Source of the DNA: an uncultured delta proteobacterium
GTDB lineage: Bacteria; Myxococcota_A; Polyangia; Polyangiales; Ga0077539
Assembly (NCBI GenBank): GCA_903885885.1
Contig: CAISKJ010001284.1
Coordinates: 1 to 38,296, forward strand
Length of the DNA: 38,296 nt
Direction of reading: 5' to 3'
This document shows positions 10,360-35,730 of this stretch, in pieces. The translations under genes and the position numbers were made by a program. The stretch's first letter is position 1. The number at the start of each line of letters is the position of its first letter. The notes beneath the pieces are model-generated. The model was not told the origin of the DNA. It saw only the letters and a list, made by a program, of their open reading frames with translations, and searched no databases.

Positions 10360-10406
10360 AGGCTTCGCACACACATTTCGCAACGATCGTGAAAGGAACC
10401 GCCACC

Positions 10407-11285: not shown

Positions 11286-11309
11286 TTGCCAGTTCGTGAG
11301 GAAGAACCG

Positions 11310-12829: not shown

Positions 12830-12859
12830 GCGACGATTCGAACGAGGAGACACTCCCCA

Positions 12860-13801: not shown

Positions 13802-13859
13802 ACACCCCTCGATCATAACGCTGCGTCGATGCGACGCGGGCCGCGGTTGCCGTTGTGTC

Positions 13860-13874
13860 TGGCACTGACTTTGG
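13860..13874 (+). promoter_or_regulatory. Weak sigma-54-like element upstream of cpaB
   Basis: TGGCAC-TGACT-TTGG has a perfect -24 box and correct spacing, but the conserved -12 GC is GG. It lies in the 168-nt gap about 95 nt upstream of the cpaB ATG. Confidence 0.2.
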
Positions 13875-13969
13875 TCTAGTGTCTCCGCGCCTGCGACGGT
13901 ATCCGCGGCGGCGGCGCCGCGCTCGGCGCACGCATCGGCCAACGCGCGGCATCGGTTGAGGGTGATTGG

Positions 13970-14806: not shown

Positions 14807-14845
14807 CCTCGCACGAACCTCATCGAGGAGCCGCCGAAGACCGCC

Positions 14846-16189
14846 ATGACCCTCCGCACCCTCCGCACGCTGCGCCTCGCAGGAGCGCTCTCCGTCGCGC
14901 TGTCCGCTGCACTGATCCCCTCGGCGGCCTTCGCGCAACAGCCCGCCGCCACACCTGGTCGTGGCGCGGGGCGCGACCTCACGCTCGCCATCGGCGAGCA
15001 GGTGGTGATCCCCGCGGGCGACATTCGACAGTTCTCCGAGGGCACGCCCGGCATCGTCGATGTGCGCACCTCCAACGACGGTCGTATGATCGTCGTGGGG
15101 CAGCGCGCGGGCAGCACAACCCTGCTTCTGATTCACGCCGGCGGCAACCAGGAGAACCTTCAGATCACGGTGTTTGCGCGGCGCCCCGAGGCCGTGCAAG
15201 CCGAGATTGAGAACCTCCTCGAGGGCTACACCGGCGTGCAGATTCGACGGGTGGGCGCGCGCCTCTACCTCGAGGGCGGCGTGGCCAGCGAGGCCCAGCA
15301 GCGCCGCGTGCAGCAGATCGCGACGCTGTACCCCGGCCAGGTCGAGTCGCTCGTGGCCATCGATCCGACCATCGTCGAGCGCCGCATCAACGTTCGCCTC
15401 GACCTGTACTTCGTCGAGCTGTCGACCAACGCGTCGCGCCGCGTGGGGCTTTCGTGGCCCGCGTTCATCGGTGGCAGCGCGCAAGACTGGCGCCTTGACT
15501 CTTCGTACAACCTCATCGCCCCGCTGGGCGGTCAGTCGGTGCCGCCGGGCGTGCAGTTCGCACGCGCCACGCTTTCGAATCAGCCCCTGCCGCGCCTCGA
15601 CATCGCCGCGAACGGCGGCTACGCGCGGGTGCTCCGTCAGGCCACGCTCATCACGGCCAACGGCAACGAGGCACGCTACCGCAACGGCGGCGAGCTCAAC
15701 TTTCGCCTCGTGGCGGGCAACGGTGGCGCATCGCTCGCGCAGATCGAGTTCGGCACCACCGTGAAGGTCACCCCGCGCTTCGATCCGCAGAGCTCGCGCA
15801 TCGACCTCCGCGTCGAGGCTGACATCTCCGATCCGGTGCAGACGGGCACCGAACTCCCCGGTCGAAACATCTCGCAGCTGAACACTCTGGTGAACCTTCA
15901 GCTCGGGCAGTCGATCATCATGTCGGGCTTTCGCTCGCGCACGCAGACGAACGGCTCGTCGGGTCTGCCGGGGCTTCGATCGATTCCGATTCTCGGGTAC
16001 CTCTTCGGCACCGAGGCCAACGACGAGACCGAGCGCGAGGGCATGATCTTCATCGTGCCCACGGTGATCGAGGGCATCTCGCGCAGCGCGCAAGACCGCG
16101 TGGCCGAGGCGCTTCGCCAGTACGAGCAGTTCTCGGGCGACATGGACGACGTGCGGCTCTACGAAGCCACGGGCGCGCAGTACCGCTAA
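14846..16189 (+). CDS. cpaC: Tad-type outer-membrane secretin CpaC/RcpA
   Basis: Signal peptide (...SAAFAQQ). N-terminal pilus-formation domain (LTLAIGEQVVIPAGDI...IVDVRTS...VVGQRAGSTTLLL). C-terminal secretin signature GLPGLRSIPILGYLFG...IFIVPTVI. Confidence 0.9.
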   Translation: MTLRTLRTLRLAGALSVALSAALIPSAAFAQQPAATPGRGAGRDLTLAIGEQVVIPAGDIRQFSEGTPGIVDVRTSNDGRMIVVGQRAGSTTLLLIHAGGNQENLQITVFARRPEAVQAEIENLLEGYTGVQIRRVGARLYLEGGVASEAQQRRVQQIATLYPGQVESLVAIDPTIVERRINVRLDLYFVELSTNASRRVGLSWPAFIGGSAQDWRLDSSYNLIAPLGGQSVPPGVQFARATLSNQPLPRLDIAANGGYARVLRQATLITANGNEARYRNGGELNFRLVAGNGGASLAQIEFGTTVKVTPRFDPQSSRIDLRVEADISDPVQTGTELPGRNISQLNTLVNLQLGQSIIMSGFRSRTQTNGSSGLPGLRSIPILGYLFGTEANDETEREGMIFIVPTVIEGISRSAQDRVAEALRQYEQFSGDMDDVRLYEATGAQYR

Positions 16190-16250
16190 GACAAGCTGTC
16201 CTCTCGCGGGCGCCGCGGCGCCGCTGCGTAGAGGGCGCCGCAAGGAAGCG

Positions 16251-18029
16251 ATGGATCAGGTCCTCCTCTCGATCGAGACGCCCAACTCCCCTCCGATGAC
16301 CTACATGGTCCCGTCGGGCGGAGAGATCTCAATCGGGCGCGACGAGACCTGCACCGTGGTGCTCGCCTCGCCCGACATCTCGCGTCGGCACGTGAACATC
16401 AACATTCACCCGCAGTCGATCGTCGTGCGCGACTCGTCGAGCAACGGTACGCAGGTCGGCACGCAGCGGGTGTTTCGCTCCGAGCTCCCAGTCCCCTTCG
16501 GCACGCCCATTCAGGTGGGGCCGTATGTGATCCGCGTGATTCGGCAGGGCGCGCAAAACGCGGCCGCCGCGCCGCCGCCGGGGGCCGTGCCGCCTCTTCC
16601 GCCGGTGCCAGGTCGTGGGCCCAACCCCATGGGGCAGACCATGGCTGCGGGTGCCAACGGCGCGCCTCGTCGCAACGTGCCCACCATGATGCCCGGGCAG
16701 GGCCCGCCGGGCATTCCGCAGGGGCCCGCCGCGCCCACCGCGGCCGCGCCGTCGGGCGGCACGATGCACGTCTCGGTGGAGCTGCGGCGACGCATCCACC
16801 GCATGCTGCTCGACCACATGGACCTCGCGGTGCTCGACCGCTCCAAGATGGCCGACAACATGATGCGGCCGAAGGTGCGCGAGGCCCTCAAGCGCATCAT
16901 GGCGCAGGTCGCGCAGGACCTGCCTCCGGGCACCGATCAAGAGCAGCTGATGCAGGAGATGGCCGACGAGGCGCTGGGCCTCGGGCCCCTCGAGCGCTTT
17001 CTGGCCGACGGCACCATCTCAGAAATCATGGTGGTCGATCCGCACACGATCTTCGTCGAGAAGCGCGGCAAGCTCGTGCGGGCCGAGGCGCGCTTCACCG
17101 ACGACGAGGCCGTGCGAAGCTGCATCGAGCGCATCGTGACGCCCCTCGGTCGGCGCATCGATGAGAGCACGCCGCTCGTCGACGCCCGCTTGAAAGACGG
17201 CTCGCGCGTCAACGCGGTGATCAAGCCCCTGGCCATCAAGGGCGCATGCATCACCATTCGTAAGTTTTCGAAGACTCCGCTGGGCTTGAACGACCTTGTG
17301 GGCTTCGGCTCGCTCACCGACCAGATGGCGCGCTTTCTTACGCGCTCGGTGATCGCCAAGAAGAACATTGTGATCTCGGGCGGCACGGGCTCGGGCAAGA
17401 CCACGCTGCTCAATGTGCTCTCGGGCGCCATCCCGAAGGACGAGCGCATCATCACGATTGAAGACGCGGCGGAGCTGCAGCTCAACCAGCCGCACGTGGT
17501 GTCGCTCGAGTCGCGCCCGGCCAACATGGAGGGCAAAGGCGAGTACACGATTCGCGACCTCGTAAAGAACGCGCTTCGTATGCGCCCCGACCGCATCGTG
17601 GTGGGCGAGTGCCGCGGCGGCGAGTGCCTCGACATGCTCCAGGCGATGAACACGGGCCACGACGGCTCGCTCACGACGACGCACGCCAACTCGCCGCGCG
17701 AGGCCATCAACCGCCTCGAGGTGCTCGCGCTCATGTCGGGCATCGATCTCCCCGCGCGCGCCATTCGCGAGCAGATTGCCAACAGCGTGCACCTCGTGGT
17801 GCAGCAGTCGCGCTTCTCCGACGGTTCGCGCCGCGTCACGTGGATCACCGAGGTGATCGGCCTCGACGACAACTTCGAGATCCAGCTCCGGCCCATCTAC
17901 GAGTTTCTTCGCAGCGGCACGGGGCCCGACGGCAAGGTGCTCGGCGAGTACCGCGCGACGGGGTATCTCCCGTCGTTCCTCGATGTGTTCATCTCGCTCG
18001 GCCTCGTGCAAGGGAGGGACTATTTGTGA
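16251..18029 (+). CDS. cpaF: FHA-domain-fused Tad secretion ATPase (CpaF/TadA family)
   Basis: N-terminal FHA-like core (ISIGRDETCTVVLASPDISRRHVNINI...VVRDSSSNGTQVGTQRV). Pro/Ala/Gly-rich linker. ATPase with Walker A GGTGSGKTTLLN, Asp box IITIEDAAEL and His box NTGHDGSLTTTHAN. Confidence 0.9.
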   Translation: MDQVLLSIETPNSPPMTYMVPSGGEISIGRDETCTVVLASPDISRRHVNINIHPQSIVVRDSSSNGTQVGTQRVFRSELPVPFGTPIQVGPYVIRVIRQGAQNAAAAPPPGAVPPLPPVPGRGPNPMGQTMAAGANGAPRRNVPTMMPGQGPPGIPQGPAAPTAAAPSGGTMHVSVELRRRIHRMLLDHMDLAVLDRSKMADNMMRPKVREALKRIMAQVAQDLPPGTDQEQLMQEMADEALGLGPLERFLADGTISEIMVVDPHTIFVEKRGKLVRAEARFTDDEAVRSCIERIVTPLGRRIDESTPLVDARLKDGSRVNAVIKPLAIKGACITIRKFSKTPLGLNDLVGFGSLTDQMARFLTRSVIAKKNIVISGGTGSGKTTLLNVLSGAIPKDERIITIEDAAELQLNQPHVVSLESRPANMEGKGEYTIRDLVKNALRMRPDRIVVGECRGGECLDMLQAMNTGHDGSLTTTHANSPREAINRLEVLALMSGIDLPARAIREQIANSVHLVVQQSRFSDGSRRVTWITEVIGLDDNFEIQLRPIYEFLRSGTGPDGKVLGEYRATGYLPSFLDVFISLGLVQGRDYL

Positions 18030-18895
18030 ACCCCTCGGCGCAGACCACGCTCATGGGCTGGATGTCGGTGCTTCTCCTCGCGGCGGGCGTCGCGGTGGCG
18101 ATCTACATCACCCTCACCGACCCCGAGAGTTTTCTCGCGAAGCTCTACGCCGACTACGTGAAGCACCTCGACGCCGAGCTGCGCGGGCTGTTCATTCAAG
18201 AGCCCACGGGGCGCACCATCGCCAACTGGCAAATCGGCGCCGCGGTGGCCATCGTGACGGTCCACGTGATGGCCGAGCAGCCCGTCGCGTATCCGCTCAT
18301 CCCCTTCGTGGCCATTCTGCCCAAGATCTGGCTTATTGACGCGAAGACCAAGCGACAAGACAAGATCGAGCAGCAGCTCGACTCTTTTCTGACCGCCCTC
18401 GCCAACGCGCTCAAGGCCTCGCCCTCGCTCGGCGACGCGATGGGCAACACGGCCACCCTGCTGCGCTCTCCGTTGAAGGAAGAGCTCGAGCTCACCATGA
18501 AGGAGACGCAGCTCGGCATGCCGCTCGACCAGGCCATTCTCAACATGGGCGGCCGTGTGGGGTCGCGGGCCTTCGCGGGCGCGCTCACCACGGTGCTCAT
18601 CGGTCGGCAGACGGGCGGCGACCTCCCGCGCATCCTCGAGACGTCGGCCTCCACCCTCCGTGAGATGGCGCGCCTCGAGGGCGTCGTGCGCACCAAGACC
18701 GCCGAGGGCAAGGCGCAGGCGTGGGTGCTCGGCGTGATGCCCCCCATTCTCATCGGCATTCTCAACTGGATCGACCCCCAGTGGCTCACGCCCCTCAACA
18801 CCACCTTCATCGGTGGGATCGTCTGGCTCGTGGCCGTGCTCTTCTGGATCGCCGCGGTGTTCCTCGCGCGCAAGATCCTCTCGGTCGACATCTGA
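18026..18895 (+). CDS. tadB: TadB-like inner-membrane platform protein (T2SS-F family)
   Basis: GTG start overlaps the cpaF stop (GTGA at 18026-18029). TM helices plus a T2SSF-type cytoplasmic domain (LDSFLTALANALKASPSLGDAM...). Confidence 0.8.
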   Translation: MNPSAQTTLMGWMSVLLLAAGVAVAIYITLTDPESFLAKLYADYVKHLDAELRGLFIQEPTGRTIANWQIGAAVAIVTVHVMAEQPVAYPLIPFVAILPKIWLIDAKTKRQDKIEQQLDSFLTALANALKASPSLGDAMGNTATLLRSPLKEELELTMKETQLGMPLDQAILNMGGRVGSRAFAGALTTVLIGRQTGGDLPRILETSASTLREMARLEGVVRTKTAEGKAQAWVLGVMPPILIGILNWIDPQWLTPLNTTFIGGIVWLVAVLFWIAAVFLARKILSVDI

Positions 18896-18919
18896 GGGCG
18901 CAGGCGTAGGAGACCCCCA

Positions 18920-19834
18920 ATGGGCATGACACCCGTCACCGCGCTGTTCTTCTACCTCTCCCTGGCGCTCTGCGTGCTGGGCTTCGGGGTCTTCGTCTAT
19001 CAGCTCGCCCTCACTCCGGCAGATATTCAGCCCGATGTGGGCATCAAGGGCCTCAAGCGACAGGCCGTGCTCGATGAGGGTGGTCCCTTCAACACCGTCG
19101 AGCCCCTCATGCGCTGGCTCGCCACGCGCATCGCCGCGCTGCCCATCGCCGACATGCGCGAGAAGGTCAACGCGCAGATTCGCCACGCGGGCGAGTATCT
19201 CGGTCTCACCGCCGACGAGTACCTCGCGCTCTGCGTGCTGGGCTCGCTGGGCTTCGCCCTCTTCGGCTTCGTGGTCGATTATCTGGCCCCCATCGGCGGC
19301 GTGTTCGTGCTGATGTTCGCGGCCTTCGGGGCCATTCTTCCGCACATGCAGCTGTCGGGTGAGATCGAGCGGCGCTTCACGCAGGTGAACCGCGGTCTGC
19401 CCTTCGCCATCGACCTCGTGGCCCTCACCATGAGCGCCGGGTTGGACTTTCCCGGCGCCCTCCGTCAGGTGACCGAGAAGACCTCGGACAAGAACGACGC
19501 GCTCTACGAAGAGATGCAGCGCATTCTGCAGGAGCTCGAGCTGGGGCGCACGCGCAAGCAGGCGCTCCTCGCCTTCGCCGACCGTTGTCCCACCGAGGCT
19601 GTGCGCGATTTCGTCTCGTCGGTGGTGCAGGCTGAGGAGAAGGGCAACCCCCTCGCCGACGTGCTCCAGATTCAAGCCACCATGCTTCGCATGCGACGCA
19701 GCGTGGCCGCGGAGGAGAGCGCGGCGCGCGCGGGCGTGCTCATGATGGGCCCGCTGATGCTCATCTTCGCGACCATCATGCTCATTATTCTGGGGCCCTT
19801 CGCCGTGAACATCATGTCAGGCCACGGGATCTGA
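18920..19834 (+). CDS. tadC: TadC-like inner-membrane platform protein (T2SS-F family)
   Basis: AGGAG RBS. T2SSF-type region RGLPFAIDLVALTMSAGLDFPGALRQV flanked by TM helices. Confidence 0.8.
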   Translation: MGMTPVTALFFYLSLALCVLGFGVFVYQLALTPADIQPDVGIKGLKRQAVLDEGGPFNTVEPLMRWLATRIAALPIADMREKVNAQIRHAGEYLGLTADEYLALCVLGSLGFALFGFVVDYLAPIGGVFVLMFAAFGAILPHMQLSGEIERRFTQVNRGLPFAIDLVALTMSAGLDFPGALRQVTEKTSDKNDALYEEMQRILQELELGRTRKQALLAFADRCPTEAVRDFVSSVVQAEEKGNPLADVLQIQATMLRMRRSVAAEESAARAGVLMMGPLMLIFATIMLIILGPFAVNIMSGHGI

Positions 19835-19850
19835 CAGGGAGCGCACCTCA

Positions 19851-20744
19851 ATGCCCACGCCGCAGCTCGATGTCTACCTCCCCGATGGAACGGTGCAGAA
19901 CTTTCCCCTCACCGACGAGCGCGTGGTGGTGGGCACGTCGACCAAGTGCCAGGTGATGATCGATCGGCCGGAGCTCGCGCCCGAGCACCTGCTCGTCTCG
20001 CCTCGGCCCGACGGGTGTTGGGTCGCCGTCGCGCGCGGGGTGGCCACGCCGACGATCGTCGACAACATGCCCTTCGAACGCGGCATGGTCACCTGGGGCA
20101 AGACCATTCAGGTCGGTCAGGTGCGCATGGTGCTCGCCGACGGCACCCGCGCGAAGAGCAACGCCAACAAAGACAAGGACAAGAAGGAAGAGAAGGTCTC
20201 TCCGGTCATTCTCGGGGCCGCCGTGATCGTGCTGGGCCTCGCCGGGTGGATGCTTCTCACGGAGCCGGGCAACCTCGCGCCGCCGAGCCGCGTGTCGACC
20301 CCGCCGCCGGCCCTCTTCGACGACCTCAACCGCCCGTGCCCGCAGGCCGACCCGTCGCTCATCGTGTCGACCGCCGAGGAGAGCACGCGCATCGCCCTCT
20401 CGAAGGCCGAGCGCATGCCGTTTCGCACGCAAGACGGCGTCGAGGCCGTGACGTACTACGCCCAGGCCGGGTCGTGCTACCGCGCCGCGGGCAACGCCGA
20501 GGCCTCCACCGAGGCGATGCGCCGGGCCAACCTGCTGCGCGCCCGCCTCGAGGAGGAGTACACGGCCCATCGCTTTCGCCTCGAGCGCGCGCTCGAGCAG
20601 ACGCGCTACGAAGACGCCCTCTACGAGGTGAAGATGCTCACGGCGCTCGTGACGCACCGCCGCGGGCCGTACCTCACCGCCCTCAACACGCTCGAGCGTC
20701 AGCTCACCATTCGCATCGATCAGGCCGCTGCCGCGAACCGGTAG
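19851..20744 (+). CDS. FHA-domain membrane protein with helical (TPR-like) C-terminal domain
   Basis: FHA-like N-terminus (RVVVGTSTKCQVMIDRPELAPEHLLV...VDNMPF...IQVGQVRMVL). Lys-rich linker, one TM helix (VILGAAVIVLGLAGWMLL), and a helical repeat-like C-terminus. Confidence 0.75.
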   Translation: MPTPQLDVYLPDGTVQNFPLTDERVVVGTSTKCQVMIDRPELAPEHLLVSPRPDGCWVAVARGVATPTIVDNMPFERGMVTWGKTIQVGQVRMVLADGTRAKSNANKDKDKKEEKVSPVILGAAVIVLGLAGWMLLTEPGNLAPPSRVSTPPPALFDDLNRPCPQADPSLIVSTAEESTRIALSKAERMPFRTQDGVEAVTYYAQAGSCYRAAGNAEASTEAMRRANLLRARLEEEYTAHRFRLERALEQTRYEDALYEVKMLTALVTHRRGPYLTALNTLERQLTIRIDQAAAANR

Positions 20745-20767
20745 CGCTGGTGAACAGGCACATCTCC

Positions 20768-21271
20768 ATGTCGTTGCTTCGCTCGCGTCTTCGCTCTCTC
20801 GCCACCCTCGCGCTCGCGGTCGGCGCGCTCTCCTCGAGCGGCTGCGCGCCCGAGGTCTCGCTGTGTCAGGTCGACGGCGCCCTGCTCGGCACCGACCTCT
20901 ACGTCAACATCGTGGGGTATGTGCGCGTGTACGGCGAGGAGCCCTACGAGGGCCGCGCCACCGTGGCCATTCTCGACAGCGGCGGCCGCACCGTCGCCGG
21001 CGGCACCACCCGCACCTACGATCTCATCGAGTCGGGCGGGAGCTATGTGTGCGTGTACACCGTCGAGCGCAGCGGCGAGGCCTCGCAGCGCCGCCTCGGC
21101 ATCGGGCCCTTTCCGATGGCCATGGTGGGCAACGTGCGCGGCCTCTCGGTGCGCCTCACCATGAACGACCGCAGCGGCAACACGCAGACGGTCACCCTGC
21201 CGCTCTCGCGCGTGCGCGAGGTCGACGAGATGCCGAACTTCAACTGCGGGTCGACCCACTGCGGGCGATGA
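20768..21271 (+). CDS. Lipoprotein, unknown function
   Basis: MSLLRSRLRSLATLALAVGALSSSGC is a signal peptide plus lipobox. An alternative GTG start lies at 20749. Confidence 0.6.
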   Translation: MSLLRSRLRSLATLALAVGALSSSGCAPEVSLCQVDGALLGTDLYVNIVGYVRVYGEEPYEGRATVAILDSGGRTVAGGTTRTYDLIESGGSYVCVYTVERSGEASQRRLGIGPFPMAMVGNVRGLSVRLTMNDRSGNTQTVTLPLSRVREVDEMPNFNCGSTHCGR

Positions 21272-21346
21272 GCCAGCGCCCCTTCGCAACCCGTCGACGC
21301 GATCTACACGACTCCATCGAGCGCGGTGTATAACCGCCGCGCTCGG

Positions 21347-21928
21347 ATGAACGTCACCGCTCGAACCCTCGCGCTGGCACTCGTCGCGCTCGCTCCGTGC
21401 GGCGTCGGCTGCGCCGCGCGCGCCGCGCAGCAGGGGCCCACGACGGACCCCATGGCCAGCGTTACGGCGCAGCAGCTGTACGACACGGGCCTCGCGGCCG
21501 CGCGCGCGGGCGACCTCGTGCGGGCCGAGCAGTACCTCGTGGCGTCGATGCAGCGGGGCATGCCCGAGCCCCGCGTGCTGCGTCAGCTCGTGAGCGTGTG
21601 CGTGCAGGCCTCGCGCTTTCGCGCCGCGGTGGCGTACGCGCGGCCCTACCTCGAGCGGCACCCGCACGACTGGGCGCTGCGGTACCTCCTGGGCACCATT
21701 CTCGAGGGGCTCGACGAGCACCAGTCGGCGCGGCGCGAGCTCGAGGCGGTGATCGCCGACAACGCGCGCCACGCCGAGGCCCACTTTCTCCTCGCGACGC
21801 TGCTGCGAGAGCGCTTCAACGACCCGGTGAGCGCAGACGTGCACTTCCGGCAATACATCGAGATCGCGCCCGATGGCTCGCACGCCGAAGAGGCGCGGGC
21901 AGGGATGCTGAGGCAGGTCGGGCAATGA
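21347..21928 (+). CDS. TPR-repeat lipoprotein (TadD-like candidate)
   Basis: MNVTARTLALALVALAPCGVGC (lipobox) followed by TPR-like helical pairs (AQQLYDTGLAAARAGDLVRAEQYL..., AEAHFLLATLL...). The track ORF starts at a GTG at 21326. Confidence 0.6.
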   Translation: MNVTARTLALALVALAPCGVGCAARAAQQGPTTDPMASVTAQQLYDTGLAAARAGDLVRAEQYLVASMQRGMPEPRVLRQLVSVCVQASRFRAAVAYARPYLERHPHDWALRYLLGTILEGLDEHQSARRELEAVIADNARHAEAHFLLATLLRERFNDPVSADVHFRQYIEIAPDGSHAEEARAGMLRQVGQ

Positions 21929-23088
21929 TCCCCAAAGAGGTCTACGAAGAGACGCTGCTGTCGTTCCTGGCGCCGATCAGGCCCTTTCTCGACGACCCGA
22001 AGGTCTCCGAGATCATGATCAATGGGCCCAACCAGATCTACATCGAGAAGTCGGGGCGGCTCACCCTCACCGAGGCGCGCTTTCCGAGCCTCGAGGCGCT
22101 CAACTCGGCGCTGCGTAACATCGCCCAGTTTGTAGGCAAGATGGTCGACGAGGATCACCCCATTCTCGAGGCCCGCCTGCCCGACGGCTCGCGCATCGAG
22201 GCCATCATTCCGCCGGCGGCGCCCGACGGGCCCGACGTGGCCATTCGCCGCTTCTTCAAAGAGACGCTCACCGTGAAGCGCCTCGTGGATTTTGGCTCGG
22301 TCACCCCCGACTGCGCAACGGTGCTCGAGTGCCTCGTGGCGCTCAAGCAGAACGTCGTGGTGGCCGGCGGCACGGGCTCAGGCAAGACCTCGCTCCTCAA
22401 TGCGCTCGGGTCGTTCATTCCCGACGGCGAGCGCATCGTGATCATCGAAGACAGCCGCGAGGTGCAGCTCCAGCGCGAGCACGTGGTGCAGCTCGAGGCG
22501 CGGCCCGGCGACGCCAAGGGCAAGGGCAAGGTCGCCATTCGCGACCTCTTTCGCGCGACCCTTCGTATGCGCCCCGACCGCATCGTGGTGGGCGAGATCC
22601 GCGGCGGCGAGGCGCTCGACCTCGTGCAGGCCATGACCTCGGGCCACGGCGGCTGCCTCACCACCGTGCACGCGACGTATCCCCACGACACCCTCACGCG
22701 CCTCGAGACCATGGCGCTCATGAGCGATGTGGAACTCCCGCTGTCGGCCTTGCGCATTCAGCTCGCGAGCGCGATCAACATCATCGTGCAGACGTCGCGC
22801 CTCGCCGACGGCTCGCGAAAGATCACGCACGTCTCCGAGGTGCGCGGCTACGACCCGAATCAGGGCTTCAAGATCGTCGACCTGTACCTTCGCAAGTTTC
22901 AGGGCCGCGACGAGCAGGGCAACCTCATCTCGACGCTCGAGCCCACCGGCGAGATGCCCCTGTGCACCGAGACCGTGCACTCGTACGGGATGCAGTTTCC
23001 TGCTTCGTTTTACGAGGCCGCGCGCGTGCGCGCCGAGATGGGCGGCGGCGAGGCGTGGTCGCAACACCAAGAGGGAGGGCACCACTGA
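21925..23088 (+). CDS. Second secretion ATPase (CpaF/VirB11/T2SS-E superfamily), no FHA domain
   Basis: ATGA overlap with the upstream gene. Walker A GGTGSGKTSLLN, IVIIEDSREV, and His box TSGHGGCLTTVHAT. 387 aa with a short N-terminal domain. Confidence 0.85.
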   Translation: MIPKEVYEETLLSFLAPIRPFLDDPKVSEIMINGPNQIYIEKSGRLTLTEARFPSLEALNSALRNIAQFVGKMVDEDHPILEARLPDGSRIEAIIPPAAPDGPDVAIRRFFKETLTVKRLVDFGSVTPDCATVLECLVALKQNVVVAGGTGSGKTSLLNALGSFIPDGERIVIIEDSREVQLQREHVVQLEARPGDAKGKGKVAIRDLFRATLRMRPDRIVVGEIRGGEALDLVQAMTSGHGGCLTTVHATYPHDTLTRLETMALMSDVELPLSALRIQLASAINIIVQTSRLADGSRKITHVSEVRGYDPNQGFKIVDLYLRKFQGRDEQGNLISTLEPTGEMPLCTETVHSYGMQFPASFYEAARVRAEMGGGEAWSQHQEGGHH

Positions 23089-24668
23089 TGGCCTCGCCCG
23101 CGGCGCCTGGCGCGCAGAGCAACACCATCTCGCTCACCATCGTGCAGGGCGAGAGCGCCAACCCCACGGCCACCTTCACGCAGGCCATGGCGGCCCGCAT
23201 GGTCTCCGTCGGCAGCGGCCCCAACGCCCATTGGAAGATCCGCGGACAGGGCGTCGAGGCCCTCCACGCCGAACTCTACTGGGACGGCAACGTGCTCTGG
23301 GTTCGCAACGGCGGCAGCCTCGGCGGCACCTACGTGAGCTCGCAGCGCGCCGACGATTGGACGCAGGTGTTCGACGGCACCGAGATCCAGGTGGGCGCGG
23401 TGCGCATCGCCTCGAAGGTCGTGGGCCCCGACGCGCGCAACCCCGCGGGGGCCGCCCCCGGCGCGTCGTCGCGCAGCGCGGGCTACATCGACGAAGAAGA
23501 GAGCACCATGGTGTTCTCTGCCCAGATGGTGCTCGACGGCGCCGCGGCGCCCATGGCCAGGCCCTCGAGCACGGCCCCGGTGCCGCAGCCCGCGCAGCCC
23601 GCCCCGGCGCGCGGCAGGGCGGGCACCATGGCGCCTCCCGTGGCGATGCACGCGCCCAACAAGCTCGGCCCGCAAGGCCCCGCGGCGTCGGCGCCCGCGA
23701 CGGCCTCGGCGCAGCCTCCGGCGCCCGCCCACGACGACGACGACGAGCCGCAGAAGCCCGCCTCGTCGGAGGCGACGGTGATCCGCGCGTCGCCCTACGC
23801 GGCCCTCGAAGCCGCGGGCATGCTCGGGCCGTTGCCGGCCGCGGGCAATCGCAACCCCATGCCCCTCGATCAGCGCACGATCGCGCCGGGGGCGCTCAAC
23901 GGTCCGTCGTCGGTGGTGGTGTCGCAGTCGGCCGTGTCGCTCCCCGCGATGACGCCGCAGGGGATGCGGCCGGGCACGATGCCGCCGCAGGTGTCGGCCT
24001 CGCTGCAGCCCGTGCAGTCGATGCCGCCGATGAACATGCAGCCGCAGCAGGGGATGTCGCAGCCCGGCGTGTCGCAGCCGGGCGCCTACGACGACCCCTT
24101 CGGCCCGATGGACATTCCCCCGCCCAGCGCCTCGCAGAGCGGCGAGAAGACCGTCGCGGGCACCTCGCCGCGCACGCTCATTCTCGCGGGGATCACCCTC
24201 GTCATCGGGCTCATCGCGGCCATCATGCCGCCGCCCAACCAGCAGCCTCGCAACGCCCCGGCGCGCCCGCAGCCGCAGGTGCTCACCGTCGGCGCTGCGC
24301 CTCCCACGACGAACAACATCTTGCAGTTGCCCATCTCGGAGCCGGGCCTCGTCGGGGTGATCGTGCCCGCGCCCATCCCGATGACCGACGCGCAGGGGCA
24401 CCCGCGCGCGGTGCCTCCGCCCAACCCGCAAGATCCCATGAAGCTCGCCGCCGAGGCCGTGGCGGCCAACCGCTACGCCGACGCGATGGTGCTCTACGAG
24501 CGCCTTGCGGCCGAGCACCCCGAGGCCCCGCTGTTTCGCCAATTCGCGGCCGTGCTTCGCGCGCGCGTCAACTCGATGAACTGCCAGCCAGGAGCGCCAG
24601 GATGCATCCCGTCGAACGCCCCCGTTCCGCCCTCCGTGCAGCCGCCCGGGGCGCGACCCTCGCCGTAG
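23088..24668 (+). CDS. FHA-domain protein with Pro/Gln/Met-rich low-complexity region, TM helix and TPR-like C-terminus
   Basis: ATG overlaps the ATPase stop by 1 nt. FHA-like core (MVSVGSGPNAHWKIRGQGVEALHAELYWDGNVLWVRNGGSLGGTYV). Low-complexity P/Q/M-rich stretch (PQGMRPGTMPPQ...MNMQPQQGMSQPGVSQPG). TM helix LILAGITLVIGLIAAIM. Confidence 0.75.
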   Translation: MASPAAPGAQSNTISLTIVQGESANPTATFTQAMAARMVSVGSGPNAHWKIRGQGVEALHAELYWDGNVLWVRNGGSLGGTYVSSQRADDWTQVFDGTEIQVGAVRIASKVVGPDARNPAGAAPGASSRSAGYIDEEESTMVFSAQMVLDGAAAPMARPSSTAPVPQPAQPAPARGRAGTMAPPVAMHAPNKLGPQGPAASAPATASAQPPAPAHDDDDEPQKPASSEATVIRASPYAALEAAGMLGPLPAAGNRNPMPLDQRTIAPGALNGPSSVVVSQSAVSLPAMTPQGMRPGTMPPQVSASLQPVQSMPPMNMQPQQGMSQPGVSQPGAYDDPFGPMDIPPPSASQSGEKTVAGTSPRTLILAGITLVIGLIAAIMPPPNQQPRNAPARPQPQVLTVGAAPPTTNNILQLPISEPGLVGVIVPAPIPMTDAQGHPRAVPPPNPQDPMKLAAEAVAANRYADAMVLYERLAAEHPEAPLFRQFAAVLRARVNSMNCQPGAPGCIPSNAPVPPSVQPPGARPSP

Positions 24669-25351
24669 CGTTGCTGCCCGTGCTCGGCGCGGGCTGCGGC
24701 ACGCAGCAGGGGCCCACGCTCTTTCCCATCACCCTGCGCGTGATGAGCGACGCGCGCCCCATGCCCGGCGCGCAGATTCTCATTCGCGACCGTGCGCAGG
24801 GCACCACCGACGCGCAGGGGTCGTTTCGCATGCGCATGACGGGCGTCGAGGGCGGCACCGTGCCCGTGACCGTGCGCTGCCCCAACGGCTTCGTCTCGCC
24901 CGCGGAGCCCGTCCCCGTCGCGCTGCGCTCGTCGATCGCCATCGACCGGGCCGCCCACGCCGCGGGTGGCATCGAGACGACGGTGCAGTGCCCTCCCGAC
25001 CAGCGCATCGCCGCGGTGATCGTGCGCACGCCCAACCGCGCCAACCTCCCGGTCTTCTATCAAGGCAGAGAGATTACGCGCACCGACCTGCAGGGCGTGG
25101 CGCACATGATCTTCAAGGTGCACCCGCGCGACGTGCTGATGTTTCGCGTCGACACCACCGCGCAGCCGCAGCTGCGACCGGCCAATCCCACGTTCAACGT
25201 CGCGACGCGCGAGGGCGACGACGTGTACGTGAGCACGCTCAACTTCGAAGAGGCTGCGGCTCCGCGGGTGGTGCGTCGCTCGACGGGCGGCGGCGGGCCG
25301 ATCATTCGTCGCATTCCGCCCGGGCGCGGCGGTGGCGGCGGGTTCTTCTGA
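24602..25351 (+). CDS. Lipoprotein with carboxypeptidase-regulatory/transthyretin-like beta-sandwich segment and Gly/Arg tail
   Basis: MHPVERPRSALRAAARGATLAVALLPVLGAGC (lipobox). ITLRVMSDARPMPGAQILIRDRAQGTTDAQGSF pattern. The C-terminus is RRSTGGGGPIIRRIPPGRGGGGGFF. The start overlaps the upstream gene by 67 nt in another frame. Confidence 0.65.
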   Translation: MHPVERPRSALRAAARGATLAVALLPVLGAGCGTQQGPTLFPITLRVMSDARPMPGAQILIRDRAQGTTDAQGSFRMRMTGVEGGTVPVTVRCPNGFVSPAEPVPVALRSSIAIDRAAHAAGGIETTVQCPPDQRIAAVIVRTPNRANLPVFYQGREITRTDLQGVAHMIFKVHPRDVLMFRVDTTAQPQLRPANPTFNVATREGDDVYVSTLNFEEAAAPRVVRRSTGGGGPIIRRIPPGRGGGGGFF

Positions 25352-25357
25352 CATCGC

Positions 25358-25831
25358 ATGGGAGGGCCGCGCACGATCACCCGGAGGGGGGCGCTAACGC
25401 TGGCGCTGGCGTTGGGCTGCGCGCGCGAGCGTGAGCCCGCGACGCCGGGTGAGACCGTGGCCGCGATGGTGAGCGCGCTCGAGCAGTCGGCGGGCGACCC
25501 CACGGCGCGGCGTCGGGTGTTCGCGCTGCTCTCGCACCGCGCGCAGGCCTCCCTCGAGTCGCGCGCGGCGCGGGCCTCACAGGTTTCGGGGCGCACCTTC
25601 GACGCGTGGGAGATGCTCGCGCCGGGGCGCGTGCGCATGCACGTTCAGTTTGACCCGGGCTCGATCTCGACGCGGATCGAGGGCGAGCGCGCCATGGTGA
25701 CGGCGCGGGGGCGCGCGGGGGGCGTGGCCGACATTCCCCTGGTGCGCGAGGCGGGACACTGGCGGGTTGATCTCAGCCTGCCTGACGCGGTGGCACCGCG
25801 CGGCAACGACCCGCGGCCCGACGCCCGGTAG
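25358..25831 (+). CDS. Small lipoprotein, unknown function
   Basis: RRGALTLALALGC is a lipobox. It is the last co-directional gene of the block, 6 nt after the previous stop. Confidence 0.55.
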   Translation: MGGPRTITRRGALTLALALGCAREREPATPGETVAAMVSALEQSAGDPTARRRVFALLSHRAQASLESRAARASQVSGRTFDAWEMLAPGRVRMHVQFDPGSISTRIEGERAMVTARGRAGGVADIPLVREAGHWRVDLSLPDAVAPRGNDPRPDAR

Positions 25832-25900
25832 CGCAGGGCGCGAGAGAATCTCCGCGCAGGGGGCTTGCCTCGCTCCGAGGGAGTGTGAAATTCTCTGCCT

Positions 25901-26086
25901 GTGGGCGGATTCACCGGTGTGAAGGTGTTCTCGGCGACGCGAGCCAAGGATCGCGAGGAGCTCGGCGAGGTGATCACGCGGTGGCTCCGGGCGAACCCGG
26001 GCTTCGTGATCGTCGACAAGGTGGTGACGCAGAGCTCCGACCGTGAGTTTCACTGCCTCACGATTACGCTCTTCTACCGGGAGTGA
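25901..26086 (+). CDS. Small hypothetical protein (61 aa)
   Basis: GTG start. Balanced, non-repetitive composition (KVFSATRAKDREELGEVITRWLRANPGFVIVDKVVTQSSDREFHCLTITLFYRE) looks like a real alpha/beta mini-protein. No family recognised. Confidence 0.4.
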   Translation: MGGFTGVKVFSATRAKDREELGEVITRWLRANPGFVIVDKVVTQSSDREFHCLTITLFYRE

Positions 26087-30500: not shown

Positions 30501-33500
30501 TTAGGGGTGGGCGAATTTATTGCCAGGGCCGCCCAGGCCGGTGACGCGCCAGCCGCGGTTGCGCAGCACACACACGCCGCAGAAGTAGCCGAGCTCGCCG
30601 TAGCGGCAGTCGGAGTAGCTCATGATGCAGCGCCGATCCCAGCGCTTGGCCTTGGGGTCGGCGTTGCCGCCGAGGCCGCCCCAGGTGACGTTGCTCACCT
30701 TCTCGTTGGCCGCGGTGTCGTGGAGGTTGTCTTTCTGGCCGGGGCCGTCACCCGCGTGCTCGAGGTGCCGATGGTGGCCCACCTCATGCGCCCACACCGA
30801 CTTGAGGCGATCTTCGGCCTCGCCTTCATAGAAGAGCCACGTGGCGCCGAGCGCGCCGCCCACGGCCGGGAGCGACATCGCGCTGCGGGTGAGGTATCCG
30901 CGGTCGGTGATTTTGCCCGCGGCTGCGGTCGCGGTCGTGCAGCCCGGTGAGGGGCAGTTGGTATTGTGCTTGGGGCCGTTGCTCGTAGCCTTCTTGAGGC
31001 CCCAGTAGCTGTGAACCGTCGTCCCGTTGCACTTGTACTGTGCGATGTAATAGGTCGGAGATGCCTTGAACTCCAGGAAGAGGTGCCCGCGCAGGTATCC
31101 CTTGCGCTCGGCCTCGCGCACGAAGGCCATGAGCAGGGCCGCGCGGAACTTCCGCCACGTCGCGGAGCAGATCGTGTCGAGCCAGGTGTTGAGCTCGCCC
31201 TGAGGCAGGTCGACGGTGGTCAGGTCGGGCCAGCCGAAGTCGTTCTGGTCGGCCCAGGGCCACAGGTGCTCTGCGTGGAGGGTGACCTTGTTCTTGTCCT
31301 TGAGTCCGGCCTTCGTGACGTTGCGTGTAACGATCTCTTTGAAGCGGGTCTTGTGCGTGTTGTTGCCGGGGTCGAACACTGCCGAGAGGGCGAGGGTGTT
31401 GGCGGTGCCGCCCTCGTGTACGAAGTACACGTGCGCCGCGCGATAGAACGCGCGAAAGGCGTTGATGAAGCTCGCGCCCCAGTTGCCGCCGCCGCTGCCC
31501 CAGCGAGAATAGGCGCGGAACGAGCTCCGTCGCCACACGCGCATCGCGGGGCCCGCCGCCTGCGGGCGCACCGGGTAGCGGGCCTTCAGGGCTTCCAGGT
31601 TGGGAAACTCATAGCCGTCGAACTTCTCGAAGCGGACCTCGGCGCGCACGCGGTACCCGTCGCCCGCGATGATCGAAGGTCGAAAGAACACCCCGGCGCG
31701 CCCGATGCTCTCTTCGAAGAGGTCGGTGTTCTTACGCTGCGCATCCGCGAGGTGGTCGTGGGCCACCGTGGCCATGCACTCCTTGTCGCCGATCGCCTTC
31801 GGCTTCCACGGCTTGAGGCTCAGGTCGCCATCGGAGAACACCGCCGTGTGGTAGCTCGCCGCGCTCGACGGTCGCACGCCCCCGAGGGCCTCGGTGCAGT
31901 TGATGTACACGGCTTCGCGCTTCGTGTCGGCCCGCGTGTGCTTCGCCTGGTTCTGCGCGAGGGCCCACTGCACGTAGCGCTGCGTGCGAACGAAGCTCTT
32001 GTCGTAATTGGCGTGGCCCGTGTCGATGGCGCTGAGATCGTAGGAGAGCTCGTCGACGGTCCAGTCGACGCGCACCGGACCGAGCGCCGCGCGCATCGTG
32101 TCGATGTCGTCGGTGGAGGGGTTCGCGTCGACGTCGTCGCCGAGGTGCTTGTCACGACTCATGAGCCGCGCCGTCGCCTGAAGAGGGATCCACGGCCGCG
32201 GGATCTCGGCGAGGTCGAGCGTGGTCTTGCCGTCACCTACCACCATGCCCCCGCGGTAATTCAAGAGCCCCATGCGCTCGCGCGGGGCGTTGCCCGAGAG
32301 GAAGGCGTTGCCCTGTTCGTCGAGGGCGGCGTCGGCCGCGGTGTTGTACTGCCGGTCGTCGACCCACACCACCACGTCGTCGAGCACGCGCTTGAGGGAT
32401 TGTTTGTAAGTGTCGTGCGCGAGGTCGGGCGCATCGCTGTTGCCGCGGATGCCCTGAATGTCACCGAAGACCGTGCGCTTGTCGCTCGCGCGAATGTGTT
32501 GAATGGCCTCGTAGAGGTCGCCGCTCTCGGCGGTGTCGATGGCCATTCGCTGATAGTCCGAGGTGGTCTTGTGGCGCGGCACCGAGCGCTTGAACTCGCG
32601 CAGGGCGCGCTCGTAGTGCTCGTTGGTCGAGCCCGTGACGGGCCCCGGGTGAAAGCCGAACTCGGCCAGCTTCATCTGGAGGTAGGCGGTGTCCGCGGTG
32701 GGGGCAACACCGAGCACCATGGGGGCGGGCTCGAGGATGAGGCTCGCGGGGGTCACCCGCGACTCGAACGCGAAGTGATCGGCGTCGACCGCGCCCGGCG
32801 CCACGTGCAGTCGCACCTCCGTGTGCATCGAGGCGAGGGCCAGCCCCTTCTCCTCGTGCGGCCCCGTGTGGGCGCGCACCTCGACGCGGTAGGGCATGTC
32901 GGCGGCGATGAGCGCGTCGCCGTCCTTGCTGTTCTTGATGCCCTCGGCGTAGGCGCCGTCCCAGTCGTCGATGGCGTGCTCCCCCTTGCCGACGAGCGCC
33001 TTCTTCAGCGGTCGTTCGAACACCACCTTGTGGTTCTTGTCGACGACGCGAACGATCCCCTCGGCGAGGCGCGAGGTCTCGCGCACCTCCCACTCGATCT
33101 TCAGCGACTCCTTCTTCGGCTCCTCCGTCGAGGTTCGCACCTTGTACACGTAGGGCGCGTTCTCGTTGTTGGCGTTGCCATCGGCGTCTACGCTGTTGGC
33201 GTCGTCGAGGTACGCCCCTTCGCCGTGCGTATTCTGAATCTCGCCGAGGTACTTCTTGTCCCATGTGAACGTGCGCTCACCAGACTTGAGCTGGTCGCCC
33301 TTGAGCACCGCGAAGAACACTCGGCGACCGCCCTTGTCGACCACCTCGACGGCGCCGCACACGACGTCCGCGGCGTTGGTCCATTTAAGCTCGATGGAGC
33401 CTCCCGCCGTGACGGTGGGCGTGTGCTCGGCCTTCGTCTCTTTGAACACAGGCCAGAAGGGCTTCACGAGCAGCAGGGCCTTCGCGTCGCTGGCCTCGCC

Positions 33501-35714: not shown

Positions 35715-35730
35715 CAGTCTCTCCCTCCCG

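Follow-up and report, generated by a model that had tools for sequence, protein, structure and literature searches.

The region directly behind tadC (19851-25831 of the window, i.e., of the whole analyzed stretch of 38,296 nucleotides) is best explained as the downstream end of a Kil-type Tad machine that an uncultured, Polyangiales-like myxobacterium encodes in one operon. Judged by sequence and synteny, the conserved and separable part of this region is not the entire run of seven genes but a unit of four, G3-G4-G5-G6, which would add a second CpaF-family hexameric ATPase (G4) together with three envelope proteins. The most likely reading, which we put forward tentatively, is that G4 serves the Kil platform as an auxiliary second motor and is anchored by G5. 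Tad pili are textbook single-motor type IV filaments. As Tad machines are thought to be single-motor, a second motor behind a Tad core is unusual.

The gene chain on the + strand, from approximately 10389 to 26086, was picked by codon-position GC (GC3 ~0.9). Its upstream part comprises the following genes:

10389-10586, + strand: Flp-type pilin candidate, 65 aa, first gene of the operon (GC3 0.86; hydrophobic N-terminal segment)
10689-11285, + strand: prepilin peptidase CpaA/TadV (Peptidase_A24 2.8e-14)
11286-12305, + strand: TadE-like minor pilin (TadE 3.3e-7; hydrophobic N-terminus)
12302-12829, + strand: 175-aa protein without family assignment, hydrophobic N-terminus, conserved across related loci
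12860-13801, + strand: 313-aa protein without family assignment, hydrophobic N-terminus, conserved across related loci
13970-14806, + strand: CpaB/RcpC, KilB-like (RcpC 3.3e-22, SAF 2.9e-6)
14846-16189, + strand: secretin CpaC, KilC-like (Secretin 4.6e-29, T2SS-T3SS_pil_N 7.9e-8)
16251-18029, + strand: first motor, "KilF"-like, a 592-aa CpaF of class III architecture, FHA-IDR-3HB-NTD-CAD (T2SSE 2.7e-63, FHA 9.1e-12)
18026-18895, + strand: TadB platform protein (homologues at the same position in related loci carry T2SSF)
18920-19834, + strand: TadC platform protein (Pfam T2SSF 2.4e-20)

The pilin candidate returned no match of its own in the Pfam search; its position matches that of the Flp_Fap genes in the related locus L036. 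For TadB, a GTG start was placed at 18026, with AGGGAGGGA upstream. Seven co-directional, closely packed genes (G1-G7) follow directly 3' of tadC, and the operon ends at a convergent arginine decarboxylase gene located after the small ORF G8. No excess of terminator-like sites was found.

In terms of gene content, the operon can be classified as a single-cluster Kil-type Tad system, characterized by an FHA-fused CpaF (KilF), the lack of TadZ and an FHA protein after tadC. This identity, the Kil-type Tad system known from Myxococcus, had been missed in the first-pass annotation. The central ATPase carries the FHA fusion and falls with its orthologues into one clade (bootstrap 100%), a family search for CbiA/ParA-like genes within 10389-26086 was negative, and G1 follows TadC like the FHA genes in the loci L029 and L034. 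The system departs from the single ATPase of M. xanthus by encoding two CpaF-family ATPases, at 16251-18029 and 21925-23088, and no second ATPase was present in the Myxococcus-type and other Kil-type loci retrieved (L029, L034, L038).

The genes downstream of tadC are as follows:

19851-20744, + strand: G1, bitopic protein, 297 aa, with a degenerate cytoplasmic FHA-like domain, one TM segment (119-137) and a helical domain in the periplasm in which two Cys are invariant
20768-21271, + strand: G2, lipoprotein, 167 aa; both the Cys of its signal peptide and a CxSTxCGR motif at the C-terminus are conserved
21326-21928, + strand: G3, TPR lipoprotein, 200 aa, first gene of the unit (TPR_16 1.8e-8; invariant lipobox Cys29)
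21925-23088, + strand: G4, CpaF-family ATPase, 387 aa, consisting of NTD and CAD only, without three-helix bundle, IDR or FHA (T2SSE 3e-57)
23088-24668, + strand: G5, bitopic protein, 526 aa, with a degenerate FHA-like domain (FHA 4.9e-8), a disordered linker of ~250 aa, a TM segment (363-381) and a periplasmic TPR-like domain
24602-25351, + strand: G6, lipoprotein, 249 aa, built of two beta-sandwich domains plus a basic tail that has GGFF at its end (lipobox Cys32; C93 and C130 invariant)
25358-25831, + strand: G7, small lipoprotein, 157 aa, lipobox conserved
25901-26086, + strand: G8, cytoplasmic ORF, 61 aa, 88-95% identical in L001 and L003-L005

The gene chain, family matches, TM segments and lipoboxes bear out the earlier description of seven genes behind tadC. 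Their grouping into one module was not upheld, considering that G1 occupies a usual post-TadC position and G2 and G7 are restricted to the closest relatives. G1 stays beside TadC where the G3-G6 unit is displaced (L012, L025), and an FHA protein directly after TadC is also found in Kil-type clusters without a second ATPase (L029, L034); G1 thereby fills the FHA-protein slot usual in such clusters. Its C-terminal 130 residues are predicted to be all-helical with a pLDDT of 80-93 there, within a model that is poor as a whole (mean pLDDT 58.5). An assignment as T3SS SctD/YscD ring protein was rejected, as RBM (alpha-beta-beta-alpha-beta) domains are missing after the TM segment and the predicted C-terminus is all-helical. 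Among the related loci, G2 is present only in L002-L005 and G7 only in L001 and L003-L005, in each case the closest relatives, to which G8 is likewise confined. Neither G2 nor G8 was matched in Pfam and NCBIfam searches, and membership of G8 in the unit is doubtful.

Within the four-gene unit, the reading frames are tightly interlocked: G3 and G4 overlap by ATGA, G4 and G5 by TGATG, and G5 and G6 by 67 nt. G3 is, as a TPR-repeat lipoprotein, of the general pilotin type and retrieved generic TPR matches only from the PDB; its identification as a TadD/PilF/PilW/Tgl pilotin was rejected on account of scores far below the model cut-offs (PilW 24.1 bits vs. 154; Tgl 18.8 vs. 225) and TPR signals that were generic only. 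An alignment of 18 G5 orthologues revealed conserved short motifs in the linker, including a near-invariant T230, and a CxxxxxxC pair in the TPR-like domain, which itself matches TPR_14 weakly (0.041). The AlphaFold2 model of G6 (mean pLDDT 81.4) shows two beta-sandwich domains, Foldseek returned generic Ig/CnaB-like matches only (TM-score <=0.36), and none of its 65 homologues is annotated.

The distribution of the unit was evaluated at 28 informative places, i.e., this window and 27 related loci, and in the loci examined it was restricted to Polyangia/Sorangiineae-type Myxococcota. G3-G6 directly adjoins the Tad core at 20 of these places, is linked but interrupted at two and detached at six. 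This contiguity is kept in loci with G4 identities as low as 64%, among them those of Sandaracinus and Pendulispora, the latter with its G6 homologue at the start of the Tad cluster. Hence, the module is not mostly Tad-independent, the finding that the first-pass annotation had named as speaking against its proposal; linkage of G3-G6 was found in 22 of the 28 places. The six detached copies, which count against the favored reading, form stand-alone operons amid housekeeping genes, e.g., for a sulfate permease, TerC, an acyl-CoA dehydrogenase and UvrD. Such detachment occurred in several G4 sub-lineages with the four genes always together, as would be expected if G3-G6 were an independent envelope system that merely tends to adjoin the Tad cluster, with G4 energizing another process via G5 and the lipoproteins. 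We regard this as unlikely in view of the linkage across deep divergence, the relocation of G6 into the head of the Pendulispora Tad cluster and a unit devoid of any platform, channel or substrate gene of its own. T2SSF, secretin and pilin genes were found neither inside the unit nor within 7.5-10 kb of the detached copies, and the platform genes nearest to G4 are TadB and TadC of the operon, 2-4 kb upstream. Furthermore, pilT and pilU, too, often lie away from pilBCD, so that detachment alone proves little against a shared machine.

Phylogenetic placement of the second ATPase, proposed as a check in the earlier work, assigns G4 to the CpaF family rather than to PilT or VirB11. Its ranking of PDB profiles was led by CpaF (2.5e-92), followed by VirB11 (4.9e-41), FlaI (1.8e-32) and PilT (1.3e-7), with the same order in NCBIfam. 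A PilT/PilU identity was rejected, as TIGR01420 scored 42.3 bits against a cut-off of 319.1 and PilT structures matched at ~1e-7 in the P-loop region only. The ATPase is intact, as had been noted from its 387-aa translation: the motifs GGTGSGKTS (Walker A), IIEDSRE, LRMRPDRIVVGEIRG and SGHGGC are found in G4 and are conserved within its clade, and Asp box, Walker B/Glu, His box, the R347-equivalent arginine finger and a full-length pore loop are kept. The minimal CpaF architecture has been described as 3HB+NTD+CAD, with the bundle predicted to contact CpaG/CpaH (PMC12019362), and G4 falls short of it. Residue 16 of G4 aligns with CpaF residue 149, placing its start 15 residues ahead of the CpaF N-terminal domain; a remnant of the last helix is all that is left of the bundle, the upstream frame is non-coding by GC3, and all clade members measure ~360-400 aa.

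With 46% identity to KilF, G4 is not a recent copy of the first motor. Its orthologues form their own clade (bootstrap 62-78%) amid other short CpaF-like proteins and separate from the KilF clade, and an exhaustive search of 50%-identity cluster representatives revealed only two or three close ones. Identity across the G4 clade amounts to 64-98%, and dN/dS values of 0.11-0.23, detached loci included, show that G4 is under purifying selection. These values contradict, as do the intact catalytic motifs, the conserved neighbors and the overlapping stop/start codons, the notion of a redundant or decaying paralogue without a distinct role, which we consider highly improbable despite the precedent of Bdellovibrio, whose additional tadA paralogues have expression profiles that differ from those of the main tad genes (bioRxiv 10.64898/2026.07.08.737194).

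Based on the observed gene content, family placement, catalytic motifs, missing bundle, conservation, synteny and purifying selection, we infer the following interactions, shared platform and direction of work. G5 would reside in the inner membrane, its FHA-like domain and disordered linker recruiting or regulating G4 on the cytoplasmic side, while its periplasmic TPR-like domain would contact the lipoproteins G3 and G6 and thereby provide a tie to the outer-membrane/secretin side. G4 may dock, as a second motor, on the TadB/TadC platform that serves this same machine and most likely acts opposite to or after the FHA-KilF, i.e., in pilus retraction, disassembly or reset, because it has lost the three-helix bundle used on the CpaF extension face.

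A retraction role for G4 is plausible as a hypothesis. Such a dedicated motor had been suggested before, and the stripped G4, without an N1 domain, agrees with this suggestion; its C-terminal face, however, has diverged. Compared with the CpaF residues linked to retraction (bioRxiv 10.64898/2026.02.24.707734), KilF retains P386/R387 and the GKVxGxxRxTG turn, whereas G4 carries P-H and GNLISTLEPTG, the R387 position being variable inside both clades. Consequently, KilF may already be bifunctional, and G4 may not dock as CpaF does in retraction. Moreover, PilT-type retraction motors, to our knowledge, need no dedicated lipoprotein partners, so that pure retraction does not explain the tight coupling of G4 to G3, G5 and G6. 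A more far-reaching version is possible yet doubtful: the Polyangia-type Kil system would be a natural two-motor Tad in which the bundle-less G4, recruited by G5, is a retraction/disassembly motor evolved independently of PilT, the two platform-binding orientations proposed for Caulobacter CpaF being split between the paralogues.

The constant company of three envelope proteins would be accounted for if G4 were an assembly, positioning or checkpoint ATPase instead of a filament motor. In this role it would help to nucleate, localize or gate the Kil machine, with G5 serving as its adaptor in the membrane and G3/G6 as its partners in the periplasm; for instance, it could stand in for TadZ, which the cluster lacks, or aid the insertion or opening of the secretin. 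M. xanthus KilD (FHA+TPR), comparable in make-up to G5, gathers at sites of prey contact whether or not the Tad machine works (PMC8460266), and both the pilotin-like type of G3 and the C-face motifs of G4, unlike those for CpaF retraction, fit such a role. Nonetheless, we deem it rather unlikely, considering that G4, at ~50% identity, retains the complete set of catalytic and pore-loop elements found in a working CpaF motor, that G3 fails the pilotin models and that orthology between G5 and KilD is not demonstrable.

Nothing in support was found for the other role suggested in the first-pass annotation, a motor dedicated to effector export, here of toxins that the Kil pilus would deliver, and we rate it as improbable. 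The Kil machine has been proposed to deliver toxic effectors (PMC12075869; PMC12428579), and G2, G7 and other small lipoproteins lie nearby, but family searches revealed no toxin, effector or chaperone-like domain in the unit, and G2 and G7 are missing from most loci. In addition, we know of no CpaF-family ATPase that has been shown to export proteins without pilin and platform.

Both bitopic proteins carry an FHA-type fold, G5 by its Pfam match and G1 by a profile match to solved FHA domains of the PDB (3.8e-6) next to a Yop-YscD_cpl match under Pfam's cut-off (3.9e-6). Phosphothreonine binding by FHA domains follows a consensus of Gly-Arg, Ser-x-x-His and Asn-Gly. Read against this consensus, the respective residues are GT..APEH..ATPT in G1, GS..EALH..LGGT in G5 and GR..SRRH..SNGT, i.e., all canonical, in KilF; alignments of the G1 and G5 orthologues show no conservation of the phosphate-binding Arg and Ser. 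The FHA domains of G1 and G5 thus appear to lack the phosphothreonine-binding residues (Arg, Ser and Asn alike) that the KilF domain possesses, which weakens the earlier idea of the pair as phospho-Thr readers and suggests that not every one of the "FHA proteins" for which kil clusters are enriched reads phosphopeptides. A cytoplasmic FHA-like domain without these residues, followed by a single TM segment, is the likeness that G1 and G5 share with YscD-type scaffolds (T3SS SctD/YscD/PrgH, T6SS TagH/Fha), reflected in weak Pfam and NCBIfam matches to Yop-YscD_cpl and TagH. In contrast to these scaffolds, their periplasmic parts are helical or TPR-like instead of RBM domains, and no other T3SS or T6SS genes are present alongside.

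Among motor pairs, type IVa PilB/PilT offers the likeness of one filament system using a long extension-type ATPase with N-terminal extra domains and a short ATPase without them, the latter possibly encoded apart from the core genes. G4 differs by lying outside the PilT family, and PilT, as far as we know, is not accompanied by a bitopic adaptor and lipoproteins. How one ATPase powers both extension and retraction is an active question, with a nucleotide switch and a physical inversion of the hexamer as proposals. The CpaF of Caulobacter drives both alone, as correctly stated in the earlier work (PMC6920026; PMC12019362). G4 shares ~50% identity with C. crescentus CpaF over NTD and CAD, including catalytic residues, arginine finger and pore loop; unlike it, G4 has neither IDR nor three-helix bundle, carries His at the R387 equivalent in this window and a diverged beta13-beta14 turn, and shares its operon with a full-length FHA-CpaF. 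This same-operon pairing of a full-length and a bundle-less CpaF provides a natural dissection of the single-motor problem, the bundle being predicted to contact the platform on the N-terminal extension face.

Bdellovibrio bacteriovorus is a predator that combines a Kil-related Tad system with multiple TadA-type ATPases; its main motor is a TadZ-TadA fusion, its paralogues lie at other loci (tadA2 with a second secretin, rcpA2, and also tadA3), and the accessible part of the preprint makes no mention of a TPR-lipoprotein/ATPase/FHA-TM/beta-sandwich unit (bioRxiv 10.64898/2026.07.08.737194). A further close comparison is the Kil system of Myxococcus xanthus (Seef et al. 2021, PMC8460266), which has in common with this operon the FHA-fused CpaF, CpaB, secretin, TadB/TadC, prepilin peptidase and the lack of TadZ, as well as FHA-domain proteins encoded immediately behind the platform genes. 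MXAN_4649 and MXAN_4648 hold the positions of G1 and G5, with no sequence orthology to the Myxococcus-type proteins demonstrable beyond the FHA domain. M. xanthus Kil, which is described as relying on one ATPase, is distributed over two clusters, whereas the operon described here forms one cluster and contains in addition the bundle-less CpaF, the TPR lipoprotein and the beta-sandwich lipoprotein. The parts list of the Kil predation machine would thereby be extended by a TPR lipoprotein, a bitopic adaptor whose linear motifs are conserved, and a beta-sandwich lipoprotein of a new family, in an arrangement that is testable, as it is carried by the cultured Sandaracinus amylolyticus and Pendulispora albinea.

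The G+C content of approximately 68% across the window renders raw ORF lists noisy. Third-position GC (GC3, ~0.9) marks a single gene chain on the + strand at ~10389-26086, composed as follows.

Upstream of G1, +: Flp-like pilin candidate
Upstream of G1, +: prepilin peptidase (Peptidase_A24)
Upstream of G1, +: TadE-like protein, then two proteins without family assignment
Upstream of G1, +: CpaB/RcpC, then secretin
16251-18029, upstream of G1, +: KilF-type ATPase, 592 aa, with N-terminal FHA domain (T2SSE 2.7e-63, FHA 9.1e-12)
Directly upstream of G1, +: platform proteins TadB and TadC
19851-20744, +: G1, FHA-like/TM/helical protein
20768-21271, +: G2, lipoprotein
21326-21928, +: G3, TPR lipoprotein
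21925-23088, +: G4, second CpaF-family ATPase, 387 aa
23088-24668, +: G5, FHA-like/disordered linker/TM/TPR protein
24602-25351, +: G6, two-domain beta-sandwich lipoprotein
25358-25831, +: G7, small lipoprotein
25901-26086, +: G8, 61-aa ORF

The seven genes described after tadC in the first-pass annotation (G1-G7) were recovered with matching coordinates and features. Junctions are tight or overlapping (ATGA at G3/G4, TGATG at G4/G5, 67 nt at G5/G6), and a convergent arginine decarboxylase gene ends the operon after G8. A terminator and promoter scan yielded nothing above shuffled controls, terminator-like sites not being in excess. G8 itself comes after the last lipoprotein gene (G7) and before the arginine decarboxylase gene; it has neither signal peptide nor family match, and its counterparts in L001 and L003-L005 share 88-95% identity with it. 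An HTTM-domain membrane protein (8732-9943, +; 3.1e-8) is encoded immediately before the flp gene. On the reverse strand, a BadF/BcrA-type ATPase of 1201 aa with a fused DUF2229 CoA-enzyme-activase domain (2987-6592) and a protein of 628 aa carrying an N6/N4 DNA methylase domain (6797-8683) appear to have no relation to the G3-G6 finding. Two large reverse-strand proteins, at 30501-34229 and 35079-37298, carry LysM in one case and PG_binding_1 (1.9e-10) in the other; they could target cell walls, with possible relevance to predation.

Kil is a Tad-like apparatus for contact-dependent killing in Myxococcus xanthus, its genes lying in two clusters with a single described ATPase, KilF, and with MXAN_4649 (FHA) and MXAN_4648 (FHA and TPR) adjoining kilH; the signature comprises an FHA-fused CpaF, absence of TadZ, and FHA proteins beside the platform genes (PMC8460266). 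Because the window combines an FHA-CpaF, no TadZ and FHA proteins beside TadB/TadC, it encodes a single-cluster Kil-type machine. Its KilF shows the "class III" architecture (FHA, IDR, 3HB, NTD, CAD) of PMC12019362, and the nearest relatives of the window, with G4 identities of up to 98%, are MAGs of uncultured Polyangiales. In Kil-type clusters of other lineages (L034 and L029, the latter from a Myxococcus-like MAG serving as proxy for the M. xanthus cluster), TadC is followed by two FHA proteins without a second ATPase, so that a bitopic FHA protein at this position is a general trait of Kil-type systems. Within the 7.7 kb available of L038, resembling M. xanthus cluster 1, a second ATPase was not found. 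A CbiA(TadZ)-TadA fusion ATPase (L033 866-2899), with the architecture recently described for Bdellovibrio TadZA, is the outgroup closest to the KilF clade of Polyangia.

All window proteins were compared by tblastn with 25 genome loci recovered with G4, and the context was also examined in Sandaracinus amylolyticus, Pendulispora albinea, and four metagenomic contigs. G3, G4, and G5 occur in nearly all informative loci and G6 in most, members being missed in very divergent loci and in contigs ending within the unit. G2 is confined to L002-L005, G7 and G8 to L001 and L003-L005, and G1 remains beside TadC even when G3-G6 is displaced, e.g., by a reverse-strand gene between G1 and G3 in L012 or a segment of ~7 kb in L025. 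From the seven-gene module initially proposed, G3-G6 thus persists as a conserved unit; G1 is tied to TadC, and G2 and G7 are found only in the closest relatives. Among 28 informative places including the window, this unit is contiguous with the Tad core in 20, linked but interrupted in two, and detached in six (L006, L010, L011, L016, L017, L021). Upstream of the detached units no Tad genes were found within 10 kb (L006, L016, L017), ~7.5-8 kb (L010, L011), or 2.2 kb (L021), their neighbors being housekeeping genes (sulfate permease, TerC, acyl-CoA dehydrogenase, UvrD). The six detached loci speak for G3-G6 as an independent system and the 22 linked ones, two of them interrupted, against it; we consider this reading improbable. 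The L025 insertion was compared with the detached L010 and L011 and is not shared. In Pendulispora the G6-type lipoprotein gene (L027 603-1301) stands first in the Tad cluster, ahead of the gene for the prepilin peptidase, instead of following G5. Genes for Ser/Thr protein kinases follow closely after the unit in Sandaracinus (L026 14044-17967), in the detached L006 (13561-15852), and in the divergent L030 (13734-14864, reverse strand), none being present in the window; this proximity may reflect chance, given the kinase-rich myxobacterial genomes, or a genuine link.

The placement of G4 among CpaF, PilT, and VirB11, raised by the first-pass annotation, falls by scores to the CpaF family. Against solved structures the values were 2.5e-92 for CpaF, 4.9e-41 for VirB11, and 1.3e-7 for PilT, and TadA-type models head the NCBIfam ranking, with the PilT model reaching 42 bits at a cut-off of 319; an assignment to VirB11 or PilT was ruled out by both. 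G4 retains Walker A, Asp box, Walker B/Glu, and His box together with an arginine finger of the R347 type and a pore loop of full length, all of them conserved among orthologues. G4 shares 46% identity with the KilF of the window, and its similarity to Caulobacter CpaF is about equal. In a neighbor-joining tree of 170 CpaF-family cores, the VirB11 and archaeal GspE2 outgroups fell inside the tree, making rooting unreliable, and only unrooted groupings were used. The G4 orthologues from 15 places (window and 14 loci) form a clade with two database representatives (bootstrap 62-78%), nested among other short CpaF-like proteins of ~370-420 aa. Polyangia KilF orthologues constitute a separate clade (100% bootstrap), which in the unrooted tree shares a side with the Bd0111 (Bdellovibrio) and KilF (M. 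xanthus) fragments. When 1.84 billion cluster representatives were searched exhaustively with HMMER, only three proved close to G4, namely P0127 at 63%, P0133 at 58%, and the fragment P0128; the remainder of the best 150 matches are at most ~55% identical. Based on its own clade, the 46% identity to KilF, and the few close representatives, G4 represents an old, compact orthologous group rather than the product of a recent tandem duplication. Its dN/dS of 0.11-0.23, detached loci included, compares with 0.3-0.58 for partner genes, values inflated by saturated, codon-biased third positions and of comparative use only; they indicate strong purifying selection on G4, also where detached. In view of this selection, a redundant copy is scarcely credible.

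CpaF is divided into an IDR, a three-helix bundle (3HB), NTD, and CAD, with 3HB, NTD, and CAD as the minimum architecture across phyla (PMC12019362). G4 consists of NTD and CAD and nothing else: its residue 16 corresponds to residue 149 of CpaF in the alignment, only ~15 residues precede the "GPLEPLL"-type NTD start, and GC3 indicates that the frame upstream does not code. All 120 listed homologues, fragments excepted, measure ~360-400 aa. Without the 3HB, G4 departs from canonical CpaF in one defining feature. The conserved catalytic motifs speak against a non-motor assembly or positioning role; we rate such a role as unlikely. Near the G4 clade stands P0146, a CpaF-like ATPase of 372 aa and thus too short for a 3HB (L031 10001-11119; L032 207-1325), an orphan in Planctomycetota-like context without Tad genes within 10 kb and followed by a gene for a DUF1583_N/3-keto-disaccharide-hydrolase protein. 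Two to four tandem CpaF-like cores per predicted protein were seen in P0121-P0126, P0129, P0130, P0132, and P0182 (e.g., three cores in the 1156 aa of P0121, four stretches in the 1605 aa of P0122), which could be genuine fused multi-ATPases or gene-call read-through.

In a 2026 preprint (10.64898/2026.02.24.707734), CpaF has been proposed to retract by flipping, its C-terminal face then lying on the platform; the features linked there to retraction are P386/R387, the C-terminal motif, and the turn between beta13 and beta14. The KilF of the window keeps "SPRE" and a CpaF-like turn ("GKVLGEYRATG"), whereas the corresponding stretches of G4 read "YPHD" and "GNLISTLEPTG"; both C-termini are full-length. 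The R387 position varies within both clades: some distant G4 orthologues carry R or K there, and T, P, K, or V occurs in part of the KilF orthologues. The suggestion that G4 is a dedicated retraction motor is therefore weakened, the retraction-face residues of CpaF being kept by KilF and diverged in G4. These residues are the main evidence against a retraction reading of G4 and do not support a simple transfer of retraction from KilF to G4.

G1 and G5 are both bitopic: a single TM joins an FHA-like domain on the cytoplasmic side to a helical or TPR-like domain in the periplasm, the latter with Cys pairs conserved in the orthologue alignments. Phosphothreonine binding by FHA domains relies, by the Pfam FHA pattern, on Gly-Arg, Ser-x-x-His, and Asn-Gly residues; all three are present in the KilF FHA domain and missing from those of G1 and G5. 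The ~250-aa linker of G5 is disordered and Pro/Ala/Gln-rich with three conserved short motifs, DEEESTMVF, SEATVIRxSPYA, and DDPFGP (residues ~134-143, 227-238, and 335-340), T230 being nearly invariant among 18 orthologues. These are candidate docking or phospho-acceptor sites, which the canonical FHA domain of KilF could conceivably read. A search of L028 and L029 for orthology of G1 and G5 to the FHA proteins of Myxococcus type gave a weak FHA match and nothing beyond (tblastn, BLASTP); hhalign aligned the G1 family with the apparently frameshifted L029 protein over the FHA domain alone (69% probability), and a PDB profile search likewise matched no other part of G1. Its single-sequence AlphaFold2 model (mean pLDDT 58.5) was too poor overall for a fold search. 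G3 is a lipoprotein with TPR repeats and generic TPR matches in the PDB profile search; it fails pilotin family models. The 65 proteins of the G6 family are all labelled hypothetical, and a PDB profile search with G6 gave no match. Its AlphaFold2 model (mean pLDDT 81) has two beta-sandwich domains resembling generic Ig/CnaB/transthyretin-like sandwiches (Foldseek, TM-score <=0.36); a "PilP-like" identity is not supported, none of the 50 listed matches being to PilP or GspC-HR-like folds.

Being close to CpaF and having an intact pore loop, G4 would most plausibly act on a T2SSF-type platform. Its surroundings offer no T2SSF-type proteins other than TadB and TadC of the Kil machine, and genes for a platform, pilin, or secretin are absent from the unit itself; for this reason, we favor G4 as an auxiliary motor working on the Kil TadB/TadC platform, a tentative assignment rated slightly short of even. 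G5 would tether or regulate G4, and G3 together with G6 would connect G5 to the outer layers. Since the bundle is lost on the extension (N-terminal) face, the role of G4 may oppose or follow that of KilF, e.g., in retraction, disassembly, or reset; most of the weight of the auxiliary-motor reading falls on retraction, which taken by itself is less likely than not. An effector-export ATPase, also suggested in the first-pass annotation, is in our view very improbable.

The Kil system (PMC8460266) and FHA-CpaF fusions (PMC12019362) are known already, as are extra tadA paralogues in Bdellovibrio (bioRxiv 10.64898/2026.07.08.737194). In full-text searches of the open-access literature, neither a second CpaF-type ATPase nor the G3-G6 unit turned up in any account of Kil-type clusters, and the finding is relevant to workers on type IV filaments and bacterial predation. 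The TPR lipoprotein, the bundle-less ATPase, and G6 represent an addition seen, among the sampled lineages, only in those of Polyangia/Sorangiineae type. In contrast to the two clusters and one ATPase of M. xanthus Kil, the window combines one cluster with a second ATPase, and in architecture G4 relates to KilF much as PilT does to PilB in the type IVa pilus.
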